NCBI GenBank assembly: GCA_016840425.1
Contig: JAEOSI010000110.1
Span: 1 to 7,445 of the forward strand
From: Candidatus Wukongarchaeum yapensis
Lineage (GTDB): Archaea; Asgardarchaeota; Wukongarchaeia; Wukongarchaeales; Wukongarchaeaceae
DNA length: 7,445 bases
Direction of reading: 5' to 3'
Shown: in pieces, positions 181 through 7,445 of the stretch
Layout of the letters: every line of letters starts with the position of its first letter
Position numbering within the stretch: the first letter of the stretch is position 1
Notes under the pieces: generated by a model
Databases searched by the model: none
The model's input: only the letters and a program-made list of their open reading frames with translations
What the model was told of the DNA's origin: nothing
Made by a program: the position numbers and the translations under genes

Positions 181-1320
181 TTATTTTGAATTATTGAGAA
201 TCGAGATGGTTTGCTCGATTTCCTCGAATGTATTATAGAGATGTGGAGAGAAGCGGAGGTTACCTTCGCGTAGTGCAAGGTCAATTCCATTATTTGTCAA
301 GAGATGGAAGATTTCGCGATTATGGTCCGAGCGTCGGTGACTTACGATTATAATTGCCGTTCGCTCTGGACATTCCTTTGGACTGAGGACAGAATATTTG
401 TTCGAATCAAGACCTTGAAGGAACCTTTCTACTAGCTTATCGTTGAATTGTTGAATCTCCGTAATGCCTTGAGCGAGCAGGTACTCAACGGATTTTGTCC
501 AGGGGACGAAGTTGAAGAAATTGGCTGTGCAAAAAACATCATATCGTTCTGCTCCTACATCATCCCTAATTTGATAATCGCGGATTTGGTCAAAGTCTCG
601 GTCGTCTTTCATCACGATCCAATACATCTGATTGTACTCAAGAACAGCGAGAAGCTCTGGTTGCAACCAGCAAAAACCCGTGCCGTAAGGCCCACAAAGC
701 CATTTATAACCACAACTGGTAACACCGTCAACGGGCATCTTAGAAACATTTAATGGACGTGTTCCAAGGGCTTGCGTGCCATTAAGAAGAAACCATACTC
801 CATTATCACGGCAAAAATTTCCAATTGCCTTCACATCGAGAGCAAAACCAGTAAAGGAGTCCACCCAGGTCGCACACAGCACCTTCGTGGAATCTGTCAG
901 ATGAGCTTTTACATCATCAACGTGAAGCACCGGACCCTTAGGTTGAATCTCCTTTACAATAATACCTTGTTTTCGTAGACCAAGCCAGGGTAGTATCGTT
1001 GCGGGAAAATCGCCTTTAACCAGAAGAATTTCATCACCACGATTGAAAGGTAGACCATTGGCCCATAGATGCAGCCCATAGGAAGCGCTATTGCCCAAAA
1101 TAATTTCCTGAGCCGGTGTACCGATAAGACGTCCTAGAGCCTCCTTCAGTTTTAACGGTACATCATGGAAAATTTCCTCTGATAGGTGAGAGGGTGTAAC
1201 ATTCCATGAAATGGCCTCATGTGCAGCTTCAATTGCTACCTTTGGCATAGCCCCAATGCTGGCGGCATTCAGCCAAATACGTCCTCCAAAGGGTCCAAAA
1301 TCGTCAGAATATGGAGGCAT
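181..1320 (-). CDS. Aminotransferase class V-fold PLP-dependent enzyme (kynureninase/C-S lyase/CefD-like; not a canonical cysteine desulfurase)
   Basis: Motifs WLNAASIG, GDFPA..LPW, NGTQALG, PLP-lysine motif DGVTSCGYKWLCGPYGTGF (Lys codon 703-705) and C-terminal LRFSPHLYNT. ATG at 1320 preferred; the ORF track starts at TTG 1335. Confidence 0.88.
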   Translation of the reverse strand: MPPYSDDFGPFGGRIWLNAASIGAMPKVAIEAAHEAISWNVTPSHLSEEIFHDVPLKLKEALGRLIGTPAQEIILGNSASYGLHLWANGLPFNRGDEILLVKGDFPATILPWLGLRKQGIIVKEIQPKGPVLHVDDVKAHLTDSTKVLCATWVDSFTGFALDVKAIGNFCRDNGVWFLLNGTQALGTRPLNVSKMPVDGVTSCGYKWLCGPYGTGFCWLQPELLAVLEYNQMYWIVMKDDRDFDQIRDYQIRDDVGAERYDVFCTANFFNFVPWTKSVEYLLAQGITEIQQFNDKLVERFLQGLDSNKYSVLSPKECPERTAIIIVSHRRSDHNREIFHLLTNNGIDLALREGNLRFSPHLYNTFEEIEQTISILNNSK

Positions 1321-1374
1321 TGGAATCTCATCCAATCGCTTTAAAAGCTAGGAAGTTATTTTCTCCTAAAAAAA

Positions 1375-3031: not shown

Positions 3032-3152
3032 TAATGTTGTTTAGTGTTTAGATTATTTAGTTAGGTTTTTGAGTATTGTCGGTTTATCTTTTACATATTT
3101 GTTTTTAGTTTTCAAATTTTTTTCAAATTTTAAGGTGTATAGGTGATTGTTG

Positions 3153-3899
3153 ATGCATGATGATCACGTTGATAGTGAAAAGGATGTTATTTATCTGGAA
3201 GACCACCACCACGAGGGTGAACATGATGAGGAGGATCATATTCACATCTGTAGTATTGAGGTGGATGCAGATATTTTTGCCAAGTTGAAGGAGAAGGCTT
3301 TGGAGAATCGGGAGATCTTTCGTTCTCTGGGTATTAAGGCTTTTAACATAATGGGATCTATTGGTTGTGGTAAAACAGAGCTTATTGTTAAGATGAGTGA
3401 GATTTTAAATCAAGGCGCCCATATAGGGTTTATTGCGGGTGATGTGGCTACTACTGTCGATTATGAAAGGGTAAGGAGTGTTGTCGACCGGGGAATACAG
3501 ATTAATACAGGTAAGGAATGTCATCTTGACTCTATAGTGATTAGCAAGGCCCTTGAAAGGATTCTCGGTCATGAGGAGGACGCTGGTATAGATATTTTAT
3601 TTATTGAGAATGTGGGTAACTTGATCTGTCCTTCTGATTTTGACCTTGGGGAGGAAAAAAGGGTTGTGGTGGTGAGTGTTGACCAAGGTCCTTGGATAAT
3701 ACGTAAACACCCGATTCTTATAAAGACCTGTGACGTGATCGTTATTAATAAAGCAGATTTAGCAAAAGCAATGGACATCGATGTAGAAAAATTAGTAGAA
3801 GATGCAAAAAGAATAAATCCAAGGGCAAAAGTAGCTGTAACAAGCGCTAAAACAGGGGAAGGGATTGAAGAGTTAATCAAGACTTTGGAAATAAAATAG
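3153..3899 (+). CDS. hypB: Hydrogenase nickel incorporation GTPase HypB
   Basis: P-loop GSIGCGKT, GDV...D.ER, metal site TGKECHLD, ENVGNLICP, KHP, NKAD, SAK; His/Asp/Glu-rich N-terminus. GGTGA SD at 3142-3146 lies 6 nt before ATG 3153 (track start TTG 3147). Confidence 0.93.
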   Translation: MHDDHVDSEKDVIYLEDHHHEGEHDEEDHIHICSIEVDADIFAKLKEKALENREIFRSLGIKAFNIMGSIGCGKTELIVKMSEILNQGAHIGFIAGDVATTVDYERVRSVVDRGIQINTGKECHLDSIVISKALERILGHEEDAGIDILFIENVGNLICPSDFDLGEEKRVVVVSVDQGPWIIRKHPILIKTCDVIVINKADLAKAMDIDVEKLVEDAKRINPRAKVAVTSAKTGEGIEELIKTLEIK

Positions 3900-4051: not shown

Positions 4052-4414
4052 TTATGCTGGAAGGATGCAACGTTGTAACACGCCCATTTCTGTGAGTTTT
4101 TTGATTATGTTTTCATAGGTTTCCTCGTCTTCTAGGGCTTGGTTTATTATTTCTTCTTGCATGTGAGTTCCTGGTTTGGTGGTTACGGTGATTTTTTTGT
4201 CTGGGAGTGCGTCTATGAGGACTTTTTTTATCACAGCACCTATGACTCCTCCTGCAGGGCAGAAGGGTGTCGTGGGGGTGAATTCTACCTTTATTTCGTC
4301 GTCTTTTATTTCAACGTCTTCTGGTGTGACTATTCCCATATCTGTTACTGGGATGGGGTATTCTGGATCTAAAACTCTGCCGATAATCTTCATTAATTGT
4401 TCTTTATCGACCAT
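4052..4414 (-). CDS. DUF59/MIP18-family Fe-S cluster assembly/targeting protein, CIA2/FAM96 (CIAO2)-like
   Basis: DPE.P, FTPTTPFC, IG..IK..L...LP, PGTH..E..N..L.D.E and a C-terminal Cys. GGCGA lies 6 nt upstream of ATG 4414 (track start TTG 4420). Confidence 0.88.
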   Translation of the reverse strand: MVDKEQLMKIIGRVLDPEYPIPVTDMGIVTPEDVEIKDDEIKVEFTPTTPFCPAGGVIGAVIKKVLIDALPDKKITVTTKPGTHMQEEIINQALEDEETYENIIKKLTEMGVLQRCILPA

Positions 4415-4445
4415 TTTCAATCGCCTGCCAATCTAAACTACATGG

Positions 4446-4499
4446 GAAAGTTAAAAAAGCTTCTTGTTCTCAAATTTTAGAATAACTTTTTTAACTTTC
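4446..4499. promoter_or_regulatory. 14-bp perfect inverted repeat; each arm resembles BRE+TATA of a bidirectional promoter
   Basis: GAAAGTTAAAAAAG (4446-4459) and CTTTTTTAACTTTC (4486-4499), 26-nt spacer, between the divergent CIA2-like and ribophorin-like genes. Confidence 0.55.
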
Positions 4500-4554
4500 T
4501 TTGTTTTATTGGGTGGTATTGTTTTTTTATTATTATTATGGTGATGAATGGTTG

Positions 4555-6480
4555 ATGCGTTTTAAACGGGGTTTATTGTGTTTTACGTTCCTTTCTTTGA
4601 TGATAGGCACCATATTTCTTTTTCCTTTTGTGATGGACAGCGTTAGTGGGATCCATGGAGAGGAAGGCTTAATAGACGAGGGAAAGGGAGGTTTGGAGGG
4701 GGCAGGGACAACGGGGGTTGTTTCTAGGTCTTTGCCTGAAAATTTGACTTTGAGCGTTAATCGTACGATTACGGTTAATATCTTTGGTCTGGTTTTGATT
4801 GAAGATAACTACCTTTTTAATGATACTCGAGTAGATGGTGCTGAGGCTCAGAATGTGACGCTTATTTTGGCTATAAGGGCAGGTGATGCTTCTAAATTGA
4901 GTTATACAAAGGTTTTTGATTATGAGACTAATGAGACCGCTGCTTTAAGGCTTGAAGAGGAGATGGATAATTACACCTATTATTCTTTTAATGTTACAAA
5001 TATTGGGGGAAATACGGCGAGAGAGATAGGTGTTTGGTCAGGATTTGCATACTATATTGAAACATCTTTGAGAGGTGGTGACCAATATTTTGCGCTTAAT
5101 ACATCTCTTTATCCTGTTATTAATGCGGAGATTTTTAATTCTACGATAACTTTTGAGTTGCCTGAGGGTGTTGGCGAGCCTGTTTGGGATCAGACTTTAC
5201 CAGTGAACTTTACGCATACCGCACCTTTCACTTTTAACGGTACAACTGCTAATATTTCGGCTTTTAATGATACGGCTTTTTATCTTGTTTATACTTCGAA
5301 TACGCCTATTATTCATTATAGTCGGGTTGAATCTAATCTTGATGTGAGTCCTTATGGGTATGTTCATGTGAGGGATGAATATTGGATTCAAACTCTTACA
5401 CCGAACACCGACATAAATAACAGAAACTTTCAGATTGGTGAGGTCTCGATACGGCTTCCCGGATACGCTGAGAGTGTTACGGTTAAGGATAGTGTAGGCA
5501 GATTAGCCGATGTAGAGCCTCAAGAGGTAGAGAATAAAACCCTCGTAGTGATTGATTTTAGGACTCCTTTAATTGTTGAAAATAATAGTTATCATTTAAC
5601 TGTAACTTATAAGTATCATTTAAGCGAGGCTTTAGAAAATGACGGCAATAAGTATCGGTTGACTACGTGGATTCTCTCTTCGTTTAACTGGACGATTGAA
5701 GAGTTTGTTTTAAAGATTACTTTGCCTGAGGGAGCCAGCGGCATAAACCCTTCAAGCGATGTTTCTTCCCTTGATCTTGGAAGTTTTAAGGTGGATTCTC
5801 AGCCCGCTTTTCTACACATCGGTAGCCGTCCTGTATTGAAAATTACGTTGAAAAAGTTGTTGCCCTGGCATCATACTACAGCTTTTCAGGTTGAGTATAA
5901 TTACTCTTGGTTAAATAAACTGAAAATGCCTTTACTTATTATCCTTGCTTGTTTTGGCGTAGGTTTGATGTATGTAGGTGTTAGGTCTTTAGCGGGGAAA
6001 ACAAAAATCGGGGTGGTTGTCAAGCCTACTCGGCTGGAAATGATCCCGGTGGATATCCTTGAAAGTTTGACTAAAAATTATGAGGAAAAACTGGCGCTAA
6101 AGAATCAGGTGAAGGAGCTTGGGGAAAAGGCTCGAAGAAGAAAAATATCAAAAGCTTCTTACGTTAAACAAAGAAGAACCTTTGAAAAGAGAATTGAGAG
6201 TTTGCAATCAACTTTAAACACAGTAACTTCCCAAGCTAGGAAGTATGGCAAGAGGTATGTGGAGATCCTCAGAACTTTAGATCTAACCGAGGCTGAAAAA
6301 GATACCATAGAACAGAGTATAAAAGATTTAGATCGAAGAAAGAGGGAACGAAAGATAAAGAAGGAGACTTACGAATCATTAAAGAAGGATTTAAATAAGC
6401 GTTTAACACGTTGTGAGAGAACCTTAAACAAGACCCTTTTAGATTTAAGGGAAGAACTTGAAAGAAGAAGAGTAAAATAA
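4555..6480 (+). CDS. Ribophorin I (RPN1/Ost1)-like oligosaccharyltransferase accessory subunit, type I membrane glycoprotein
   Basis: N-terminal signal helix; beta-rich ectodomain with ribophorin-I-like segments (DVSPYGYVHVRDEY, LPGYAESVTVKDSVG, DFRTPL, ITLPEGA, SRPVLKI...H...FQVEYNY....LKMPL); single TM helix at 5926-5982; basic helical cytoplasmic tail; 17 ectodomain N-X-S/T sequons. GGTGA SD at 4540-4544 supports ATG 4555 over TTG 4501. Confidence 0.78.
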   Translation: MRFKRGLLCFTFLSLMIGTIFLFPFVMDSVSGIHGEEGLIDEGKGGLEGAGTTGVVSRSLPENLTLSVNRTITVNIFGLVLIEDNYLFNDTRVDGAEAQNVTLILAIRAGDASKLSYTKVFDYETNETAALRLEEEMDNYTYYSFNVTNIGGNTAREIGVWSGFAYYIETSLRGGDQYFALNTSLYPVINAEIFNSTITFELPEGVGEPVWDQTLPVNFTHTAPFTFNGTTANISAFNDTAFYLVYTSNTPIIHYSRVESNLDVSPYGYVHVRDEYWIQTLTPNTDINNRNFQIGEVSIRLPGYAESVTVKDSVGRLADVEPQEVENKTLVVIDFRTPLIVENNSYHLTVTYKYHLSEALENDGNKYRLTTWILSSFNWTIEEFVLKITLPEGASGINPSSDVSSLDLGSFKVDSQPAFLHIGSRPVLKITLKKLLPWHHTTAFQVEYNYSWLNKLKMPLLIILACFGVGLMYVGVRSLAGKTKIGVVVKPTRLEMIPVDILESLTKNYEEKLALKNQVKELGEKARRRKISKASYVKQRRTFEKRIESLQSTLNTVTSQARKYGKRYVEILRTLDLTEAEKDTIEQSIKDLDRRKRERKIKKETYESLKKDLNKRLTRCERTLNKTLLDLREELERRRVK

Positions 6481-6570
6481 AACTTAGAAAGGCATCCCAT
6501 AGTTGTTATGGCTCAACTGTTTAATGAGCGAAAGAAAGATTTAAAAGAAGGGCGGTCTTAATTTTTACGG

Positions 6571-6722
6571 CATCGGGGGTTTTTAAAGAGCAGTGATAGC
6601 CCCATAAAAGCCTAGAAATCTTAGAGAAGAACACGCTAAAAACACTCCCATTAGAAAAATCTTCCTAAGAAAGGGGTTTCCTGATTCCTTCCTTTGAATC
6701 CTGCTTAAAAAACCCCCCGATG
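6571..6722. other. Unannotated 152-nt element closed by a ~22-nt imperfect inverted repeat, with nested internal helices (candidate ncRNA)
   Basis: CATCGGGGGTTTTTAAAGAGCAG (6571-6593) pairs with CTGCTTAAAAAACCCCCCGATG (6701-6722). Four further internal helices were found by hand. Confidence 0.5.
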
Positions 6723-6875
6723 TAATCCTTTTAACAACAAATTTTTAGGTTTCTAGACAAGCTTTAAACTGGTGTTAAACCTGTTTTTTCAAATTGTAGA
6801 AAGCAAATCTTAGCCTTCATATTCATAATAATCTTGCCTTAGATGTCTAACTACGTTTAATAATCAAAAAGCATC

Positions 6876-6882
6876 AAAAAAA
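6876..6882 (-). terminator. Oligo-T (T7) terminator downstream of tRNA-Gln
   Basis: Seven A on the + strand about 20 nt past the tRNA 3' end, with a second A5 tract at 6866-6870. Confidence 0.5.
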
Positions 6883-6903
6883 GCCTGTTTAGTGATTTTA
6901 TTA

Positions 6904-7007
6904 TGGTAGCCCGGGCCAGATTCGAACTGGCGTTTCAGGGTCCAAAGCCCTGAATGCTTAACCGTAAAACTTTTTTTGCGTTTCTTTGGCCGCTACACCA
7001 CCGGGCT
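6904..7007 (-). tRNA. trnQ: tRNA-Gln (anticodon TTG) with a 28-nt intron in the D-loop (position 21/22; 6958-6985) and encoded CCA
   Basis: Minus strand reads AGCCCGG TG GTGT AGCGGCCAA [AGAAACGCAAAAAAAGTTTTACGGTTAA] GCAT T CAGGG CTTTGGA CCCTG AAAC GCCAG TTCGAAT CTGGC CCGGGCT A CCA. The mature product is 76 nt and all stems pair. A1-U72 is typical of archaeal tRNA-Gln. Confidence 0.95.
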
Positions 7008-7050
7008 TTCAAGGTTTTAGTATTAGTAAGATCTTCTAACATTGACACAG

Positions 7051-7060
7051 TTTTAATAAA
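7051..7060 (-). promoter_or_regulatory. Putative TATA box of the tRNA gene
   Basis: TTTATTAAAA on the minus strand, 44-53 nt upstream of the mature tRNA 5' end. Confidence 0.4.
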
Positions 7061-7236
7061 CAGCAAACTATTTTATATTTATTCATTTCAGAATTTAAAA
7101 AATTTTTACATTTTTAGGTTTTTGGTTGGATTAACTTAACTTATTGTTGGCAGAAGAAAAAATAAAATCGGTTCCAAACGCTTTATTAAAGTTATATATC
7201 AGAGAGAATAAAACTTGAACGGGGAGATGTAGATGC

Positions 7237-7445
7237 TCAACCAAGTTTACTTTGTCTTTTACGTTTGATAGGGTGTTTCTTTTTCGCCCCTATATTGGTT
7301 AAGGCTAATTTTATGATATTGGCAACCTTTTTTTCAACTTGGGTTTCAATATCTTCTGAAGTGGGGGCAACAATTATTACCAGTTGAAAATCTTTATCGT
7401 TCAATACTTTTATACTGTTTATAACCCTAAGTAATGTGCCTTCGC
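7237..7445 (-). CDS. 3' end of a CDS running off the window; weak resemblance to a GT-A/GT2 glycosyltransferase N-terminal region, possibly truncated
   Basis: Frame open from 7443 to TGA at 7239-7237: EGTLLRVINSIKVLNDKDFQLVIIVAPTSEDIETQVEKKVANIIKLALTNIGAKKKHPIKRKRQSKLG*. The family resemblance is a weak impression only. Confidence 0.5.
   Translation of the reverse strand, partial: EGTLLRVINSIKVLNDKDFQLVIIVAPTSEDIETQVEKKVANIIKLALTNIGAKKKHPIKRKRQSKLG

Follow-up and report, generated by a model that had tools for sequence, protein, structure and literature searches.

We have analysed a contig of 7,445 nucleotides (JAEOSI010000110.1 in assembly GCA_016840425.1; at its full length referred to below as the window) that forms part of a 2.16-Mb metagenome-assembled genome (MAG), 92% complete, of the Asgard archaeon Candidatus Wukongarchaeum yapensis. 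The minus strand of the window carries a gene for a small protein of the DUF59 family, and the likeness of this protein to eukaryotic CIA2 (MIP18), a member of the targeting complex in cytosolic iron-sulfur (Fe-S) protein assembly (CIA), is the subject of this report. The group label that we use for the host is Hod, and a MAG of the same genus carries the title 'Candidatus Hodarchaeota archaeon'. The gene and the elements recognised in its product are as follows.

4052..4414, minus strand: coding sequence of the CIA2/MIP18-type DUF59 protein (P0001), from the list of open reading frames (ORFs), its translation, Pfam PF01883, PDB matches and an AlphaFold 2 (AF2) model
4355..4369, minus strand: DPEYP motif, residues 16-20; in the alignments and motif table D16 and P17 do not vary within the family
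4256..4282, minus strand: FTPTTPFCP, residues 45-53, which contains the 'reactive' cysteine of DUF59, Cys52, shared by all of 58 sequences
4163..4174, minus strand: PGTH, residues 81-84, read in the sequence, the alignments and the motif table; it stands at the DPPW position of short forms
4067..4156, minus strand: predicted C-terminal helical extension, residues 87-116, assigned by DSSP from the AF2 model; galla-2 and FAM96A have their C-terminal helices at the aligned positions
4067-4069, minus strand: Cys116, the terminal cysteine, at the end of the helical extension

Translation of positions 4055-4414 gives a protein of 120 amino acids, followed by a TAA stop codon at 4052-4054. The ATG at 4414 is the likely start codon because related proteins begin with MVDK or MDK; a TTG at 4420 is an alternative that would add two residues, 'MK'. 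This is the only DUF59 gene in the whole genome and it is native to it. The same-genus MAG keeps the gene order (ribophorin I-like gene, DUF59 gene, hypB, molybdopterin oxidoreductase, DUF362), and the products of four of the five matched genes are 84-92% identical to those of the window; the fifth match is a 36-residue ribophorin I fragment at the end of that locus (75%). Base composition gives no hint of contamination, since the gene has a GC content of 41.6% and the genome one of 38.0% (window, 38.9%).

Sequence and structural relationships

The motif strings on which the original prediction was built are all present in the translation, from DPEYP through VEFTPTTPFC (residues 43-52), IGAVIKK, DALPDKK and PGTHMQEEIINQALEDEE (81-98) to VLQRCI (112-117). 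G82 and H84 are each conserved in at least 90% of the 58 sequences. The immediate context of the reactive cysteine is F-C-P, as opposed to H-C-S in eukaryotes, and the C-terminal extension is predicted to consist of three helices (87-95, 97-109 and 112-116).

The core domain, an alpha/beta fold, is recognised by Pfam PF01883 (DUF59/FeS_assembly_P; E = 2.5e-10, 40.9 bits against a cut-off of 23.5). Among PDB chains the best sequence match is Drosophila CIAO2B (galla-2; E = 2.6e-15), which spans residues 3-117 without large gaps and well past what chance would give, followed by human FAM96A (E = 5e-10, residues 8-118); the bacterial TM0487 is matched over residues 2-64 only (E = 3e-5). The AF2 model (pLDDT 94.2), for which the alignment used in folding contained eukaryotic CIA2 sequences, superimposes in Foldseek on CIAO2B from the CIA targeting complex (6tbn/6tbl/6tc0) with a TMq of 0.91 and a root-mean-square deviation of 1.7-1.9 Å over 122 columns; the values for DUF59 proteins of B. 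anthracis and T. thermophilus are 0.56-0.59. The predicted likeness to CIA2/FAM96 along the full length is thus borne out by galla-2 and by the structural match; the sequence comparison was made with the Drosophila orthologue from the PDB in place of the human CIAO2B string, and the pattern is the same.

An exhaustive HMMER search of 1.84 billion representative proteins returned 654 matches, headed by about ten short archaeal proteins and continuing mostly with proteins of 150-330 residues in which the domain is C-terminal. Of the 150 best matches, 131 are eukaryotic-CIA2-like, a class defined by BLAST similarity to four sequences (named MIP18, galla-2 or AE7-like, or from a choanoflagellate) and not by the source records. 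A word-indexed homologue search found two near-identical proteins only.

The eukaryotic proteins with which the archaeal one shares most features are CIA2/CIAO2B/FAM96B/MIP18 (galla-2, and AE7 in plants) and CIAO2A/FAM96A, which align over residues 3-118 at about 30-35% identity. Common to both sides are DPE(H/Y)P, FxPTxPxC, PG(T/S)H, E87, N91 and D96, as well as the three C-terminal helices and the terminal cysteine. Unlike eukaryotic CIA2, the archaeal protein has neither an N-terminal extension nor the NKQL.DKERV.AALEN signature, and it differs at position 51 (F, against H in 89% of eukaryotic representatives), position 53 (P, against S in 89%) and position 100 (Y, against V in 88%). With no P-H-C-S and no NKQL.DKERV, and with a position outside the eukaryotic clade described below, it is not a eukaryotic CIA2 proper.

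With SufT of S. aureus, TM0487 of T. maritima, Rv1466 of M. tuberculosis and PaaD the protein shares the DUF59 core, DPE..P and Cys-Pro, and presumably an accessory role in Fe-S protein maturation. These short forms have about 100 residues, a DPPW motif and one short terminal helix, and they match residues 1-80 only; the C-terminal helical extension of the archaeal protein is absent from them. Short forms in other Asgard genomes read ...VFDPPWTPD... or ...VWDPPWSPE... where this protein has PGTH followed by 36 further residues, which upholds the predicted contrast with DPPW-type proteins. Scores against the NCBIfam models lie far below their cut-offs (TIGR02945, 36.1 bits against 143.4; TIGR02159, 30.3 against 108; TIGR03406, 25.9 against 202.6), and there is no suf or paa operon at the locus, where hypB and a ribophorin I-like gene flank the DUF59 gene; the SufB/D genes lie on other contigs. 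The 120-residue protein therefore falls outside the ordinary SufT/PaaD short forms, as had been proposed. Its match runs on through the C-terminal helices and takes in the FxPTxPxC reactive cysteine and PG(T/S)H, and sequence and model together place it, over its full length, in the MIP18/CIA2 family in the broad sense, that is, among the long forms of DUF59.

The family to which the protein belongs is that of the archaeal long DUF59 proteins of the PGTH type, with the same length, motifs and architecture and 36-55% identity; the nearest relatives are in Sifarchaeum (53%) and Hermodarchaeia (47-53%). The annotation of these family members goes no further than 'iron-sulfur cluster assembly protein' or 'metal-sulfur cluster biosynthetic enzyme'. 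Bacterial long forms of a GH(Y/F)Q type resemble them in length and in having a C-terminal helical extension that usually ends in Cys, but DPEHP is replaced in them by DPD(Y/L).D, the His is not preceded by Thr/Ser, and the cysteine lies within Y..(A/G)P.CP.

Distribution of the long forms

Among 400 Asgard genomes surveyed, 75 carry a long form (threshold E of about 2e-20 or lower), and the carriers are families of Hod-, Sif-, Hermod-, Jord- and Thorarchaeia. The largest Asgard families gave no long form in this survey: f9 (1/135) and f4 (1/31) have one match each, both partial and confined to profile positions 2-82, and f14, f21 and f23 have none; some other Asgard families have the short DPPW form only. 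Because most of the Asgard genomes searched lack it, the long-form gene is dispensable.

The original prediction took the eukaryotic hallmarks to be special to eukaryote-related archaea, and had named a wide occurrence of PGTH and the terminal Cys helix outside them as evidence to the contrary. Such an occurrence is what we find. When genomes, one for each GTDB species, were scanned with a pattern, 199 relatives came to light, and the best 80 of these include full-length homologues of 41-49% identity in non-Asgard MAGs, namely from Bathyarchaeia (contigs up to 1.07 Mb), Hadarchaeota, Methanocellales, Mnemosynella and Thermococci. One such sequence reads ...VKPGTHVSEDAIN...LSDMGLLKRCVKVK, with the same PGTH and terminal Cys helix. 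A sample of 401 genomes from Thermoproteota, to which Bathyarchaeota archaeon B24 belongs, contained 13 with a long form. The family is thus more frequent among Asgard archaea, yet it extends beyond them.

The distant GH(Y/F)Q variant, with DPDY.D and usually with the terminal Cys, occurs in MAGs of Dehalococcoidales/Chloroflexota and Deltaproteobacteria, where the contigs reach 1.18 Mb. The window's order comprises just one further family, and this (L014/L048, G002:C31:6554-6901) has a bacterial-type GH.Q protein and not the PGTH type. This protein nests in the Chloroflexota/Deltaproteobacteria clade (86/88-96/90); transfer or mis-binning are possible sources, and its genome has 9% contamination.

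A profile built from eukaryotic sequences only scores all archaeal PGTH groups at 82-91 bits, with 88.1 for the protein described here and medians of 89 for Bathyarchaeia, 90 for Hadarchaeota, 91 for Hermodarchaeia and 85 for Thorarchaeia. The bacterial variant scores about 40 bits and the short forms about 27. By this measure the archaeal PGTH type is much closer to eukaryotic CIA2 than the bacterial type is.

Residues common to eukaryotes and all archaeal PGTH groups are F45, P47, T48, C52, G82, (T/S)83, H84, E87, N91 and D96. The eukaryotic H51 and S53 correspond in archaea to F/Y/M/Q and P. C116 is found in 87% of eukaryotic representatives, in the Hod, Sifarchaeia, Bathyarchaeia, Hadarchaeota, Methanocellales and Thermococci groups and in half of the Jordarchaeia; it is absent from the Thorarchaeia, Hermodarchaeia and Mnemosynella groups.

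Several variants were seen in the course of the survey. A eukaryote-like His before the reactive cysteine (PT.PHCP or PTVEHCP) is present in 23% of Thorarchaeia sequences; the loci with P-H-C homologues, from Thorarchaeia and unclassified Asgard archaea, are L127, L131, L134, L136-L138 and L140-L143. All Thorarchaeia sequences lack the last helix and its Cys and end in ...RGM(I/L/M). Bacterial long forms with a C-terminal Cys helix come from Dehalococcoidales and Deltaproteobacteria (L059-L066; P0013, P0011, P0022). A fusion of OsmC to the long DUF59 domain (P0013, 295 residues) is present on several contigs and hints at thiol or peroxide chemistry, and a HAD hydrolase is fused to the domain in P0011 (320 residues), one member of whose cluster is labelled Nanoarchaeota. 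A very divergent relative in family f17 (L015, G021; P0126), …DKSVITADYWNSQLSNEE…KYFITE, has a branch length of 3 and has lost the His of PGTH as well as the Cys at its end; this may reflect neofunctionalisation of a copy.

Phylogenetic relationships

Two trees were built, both unrooted within the long-form family. Tree 1 (89 rows, 128 columns; LG+C20+F+G4 with posterior mean site frequencies) excludes P0050, P0052, rows with an incomplete domain, and near-duplicates, the identity limit for which was 85% in prokaryotes and 62% in eukaryotes. For tree 2 (96 rows, 122 columns) non-Asgard archaea were added, and P0126 was removed along with 15 eukaryotic rows that were long-branched or surplus.

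Across both trees the split between long and short forms is supported at 100/98-100, and eukaryotic CIA2 belongs with the long forms; this split likewise separates the present protein from SufT and PaaD. The eukaryotes form a single clade (100/100) on a long stem (1.53 in tree 1), outside all archaeal sequences, and the bacterial variant is a separate clade (99/91-99). In tree 1 the eukaryotes lie within a group (81/85) that also holds Hod, Sifarchaeia, Hermodarchaeia and Thorarchaeia, and stand beside Thorarchaeia at 96/66. The backbone of tree 2 collapses to a polytomy, with the eukaryotes beside Thorarchaeia in the maximum-likelihood (ML) tree at a bootstrap of 22 and an SH-like approximate likelihood ratio (SH-aLRT) support of 95. 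A sister relationship of Thorarchaeia to eukaryotes was accordingly set aside, its 96/66 support having fallen to a bootstrap of 22 once more archaea were added.

Approximately unbiased (AU) tests did not reject any of the three constraints imposed: eukaryotes with Hod and Sifarchaeia (p = 0.377), eukaryotes with non-Asgard archaea (p = 0.609, with a likelihood above that of the free search) or eukaryotes with the bacterial variant (p = 0.602). Since all three pass, the 122-column alignment has no power to place the eukaryotic stem, and the sister of eukaryotic CIA2 is not fixed among Asgard, non-Asgard and bacterial partners. The earlier view of the protein as an intermediate, or sister, of eukaryotic CIA2 finds no support in these results.

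CIA partners and Fe-S machinery

The original prediction also raised a proto-CIA system and suggested a search of the genome for its other members. Of those sought, two Mrp/Nbp35-type ATPases are present (one at L022:1435-2274), with the cluster-bridging CxxC and no DUF59 domain. No WD40 protein (PF00400) was detected in the 92%-complete genome, where absence from an incomplete MAG is not proof, and no Nar1-type Fe-hydrogenase domain (PF02906) was detected there either. MMS19_N (PF14500) was likewise not detected in the genome, in a search whose control was silent and which is uninformative alone. Two SufB/D homologues are present and no IscU was found in the genome.

We extended the search for WD40 proteins to 41 Asgard genomes. 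They are common in families without the long-form gene and were not found in the genomes of Jordarchaeia family f7 or of Sifarchaeia that carry it; Jordarchaeia family f18 has the long form, and WD40 proteins are present in one of its two genomes searched. The presence of WD40 proteins thus does not track that of the long-form gene across Asgard genomes, and a proto-CIA system finds no backing here. One WD40 gene, in Hermodarchaeia, lies 6.6 kb from the homologue and was considered as a candidate CIA1. It was rejected: it is a generic WD40-repeat protein resembling chiefly WDR5, and CIAO1 is outside its 60 best matches.

Gene neighbourhood

Four further features of the window were annotated.

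4451..4458, minus strand: A/T-rich box TTTTTTAA in the minus-strand sequence, some 37-44 nt ahead of the ATG
3147-3899, plus strand: HypB nickel-insertion GTPase (TIGR00073 at 7.9e-69), with a His/Asp/Glu-rich N-terminus HDDHVDSEKDVIYLEDHHHEGEHDEEDHIH
4501-6480, plus strand: ribophorin I-like protein of 659 residues (PF04597 at 2.4e-24, residues 193-492)
181-1335, minus strand: class-V aminotransferase

The DUF59 gene is monocistronic, with hypB convergent on one side and the ribophorin I-like gene divergent on the other; because of the convergent orientation the gene and hypB are not an operon. The TTTTTTAA box may be an archaeal TATA-like promoter element. When neighbouring ORFs were clustered over about 120 loci, conservation was seen within lineages only: GNAT proteins, coiled-coil proteins and ThiF in Thorarchaeia and Hermodarchaeia, and LarC and a carbamoyltransferase in Jordarchaeia.

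Some individual neighbourhoods are of interest in their own right. A gene for a ThiF-family E1-like protein recurs within 1-3 kb of the homologue in 23 loci of Thorarchaeia, Hermodarchaeia and unclassified Asgard archaea (L157, G012:C2:31500-41500, and many others), and in Hermodarchaeia a class-V aminotransferase of the cysteine desulfurase-like kind (2.8e-99) adjoins it; with the class-V aminotransferase of the window itself, these neighbours may be a link to sulfur trafficking. In Jordarchaeia a homologue adjoins a LarC nickel-insertion gene (L125:1602-2840). The shared nickel theme of HypB and LarC is probably a coincidence.

Function and origin

Characterised DUF59 proteins (SufT, CIA2, HCF101) all act in Fe-S protein maturation (PMC4982691), and for this reason we infer such a role here. 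We consider it likely that the protein is a stand-alone, single-domain, long CIA2/MIP18-type DUF59 protein that serves as an accessory factor in Fe-S maturation, alone or as a homo-oligomer, and not in a CIA1-MMS19 complex. It would act late in the maturation of Fe-S proteins, as SufT and CIA2 do. Cys52 would hold or hand over the cluster, with His84 or Cys116 as possible co-ligands, and the clusters would be built on a SUF-type scaffold and carried by the two Mrp/Nbp35-type ATPases, with the protein itself working outside any CIA1-MMS19 complex.

Several observations weigh against this account. Most Asgard genomes searched, the largest families included, do without the long form; no operon ties the gene to Fe-S assembly; and no neighbour recurs across lineages among the approximately 120 loci. 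The reactive cysteine has the F-C-P context and not the eukaryotic H-C-S. Cys116 is missing from the Thor- and Hermodarchaeia homologues and is therefore no essential ligand for the family.

A more ambitious reading, closest to the original prediction, is of an Asgard-specific intermediate beside the ancestor of eukaryotic CIA2, working in a proto-CIA complex with CIA1-like and MMS19-like partners. The host is an Asgard archaeon (placed in Hodarchaeales in our analysis), the likeness to CIAO2B covers the full length, and a 'clear association with Asgard' has been reported for CIA1 and CIA2B (PMC12338589). Both ML trees put the eukaryotes beside an Asgard group, the Thorarchaeia, a clade of eukaryotes with Hod and Sifarchaeia is not rejected (AU p = 0.377), and the long form is commoner in Asgard genomes (75/400) than in sampled Thermoproteota (13/401). 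However, non-Asgard archaea have the same hallmarks and equal scores against the eukaryote-only profile, and groupings of the eukaryotes with non-Asgard archaea or with the bacterial variant are at least as likely (p = 0.609 and 0.602). WD40, Nar1-type and MMS19_N domains are undetected in the 92%-complete genome, the Jord- and Sifarchaeia that carry the gene show no WD40 proteins save for one Jordarchaeia genome of family f18, and the families rich in WD40 proteins are without the gene. The sole WD40 gene near a homologue, in Hermodarchaeia, encodes a generic WDR5-like propeller, and the other family of the window's order has the bacterial-type variant. On balance we regard this reading as unlikely.

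A role outside Fe-S chemistry, as a subunit or chaperone of another metal or redox system such as nickel handling or a PaaD-like oxygenase, is suggested by the convergent HypB gene, the LarC-type nickel-insertion gene beside the Jordarchaeia homologue, the weak NCBIfam PaaD matches and the existence elsewhere of proteins in which OsmC or a HAD hydrolase is fused to the long domain. Against this, the orientation of hypB precludes an operon, the neighbours differ in every lineage, the PaaD models give 30 bits where their cut-offs lie at 108-180, and the characterised members of the family all work in Fe-S maturation; such a role seems distinctly improbable. Least credible of all is the transfer of a eukaryotic CIA2 gene into archaea followed by its spread, by which the likeness would be uninformative on the origin of CIA2. 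The patchy spread over distant archaeal phyla would fit, and the trees are unrooted within the long forms and the AU tests of little power. Nonetheless, the eukaryotes form one 100/100 clade with a long stem, outside the archaeal sequences; the archaeal proteins are diverse (36-55% identity) and occur in at least four phyla, with a bacterial variant besides; and they keep the prokaryotic C-P context, without H-C-S, NKQL.DKERV or an N-terminal extension.

The PGTH-type family, a patchy archaeal subfamily of several Asgard classes, Bathyarchaeia, Hadarchaeota and some Methanobacteriota MAGs, with a distant bacterial variant, is the closest prokaryotic relative of eukaryotic CIA2. Whether archaeal PGTH long forms are also the direct stock of eukaryotic CIA2, having already been stand-alone Fe-S delivery factors without CIA1, MMS19 or Nar1, we judge to be evenly balanced. 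If they are, the CIA targeting complex took shape around an archaeal protein that was already there, and the donor of this protein need not have been a member of Heimdall/Hodarchaeales, the versions in Thorarchaeia, Bathyarchaeia and Hadarchaeota being equally close. The CIA pathway, described as 'largely bacterial in character' by Freibert et al. (2017; PMC5216125), who left the relation of Cia2 to its prokaryotic homologues unresolved, would gain one archaeal root.

Tobiasson et al. (2025) report the Asgard association of CIA1 and CIA2B quoted above and did not detect MMS19 (PMC12338589); the text portion of the supplement to that paper has no CIA2 entry. The expectation that the protein might already be catalogued in Asgard surveys is therefore right as to the association of CIA2B, and the proteins themselves are undescribed there. 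Within an incomplete coverage of the literature, no description of the archaeal subfamily, of its motifs or of its occurrence beyond Asgard archaea came to light. What is added to the known Asgard association is that an archaeal subfamily as a whole has the 'eukaryotic hallmarks'. The archaeal counterpart of CIA2 is thereby made concrete as a protein of 115-125 residues with the full CIA2 architecture, which occurs without the other subunits of the targeting complex and beyond Asgard archaea too. This tempers the use of the gene as a eukaryotic signature protein or as evidence of a 'proto-CIA complex', and leaves it as a real but modest clue to the origin of CIA2. The proteins of this family are also small, soluble and easily expressed, and could serve for work on the core chemistry of CIA2 separately from the rest of the complex.

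Other features of the window

Searches of the window for tRNAs and Rfam families gave no match, including at positions 6481-7445, a stretch of about 960 bp that holds only short ORFs of up to 68 residues. The ribophorin I-like protein, an Asgard eukaryotic-signature protein encoded divergently from the DUF59 gene, has beyond an apparent transmembrane helix a long C-terminal tail that is rich in Lys, Arg and Glu and coiled-coil-like.

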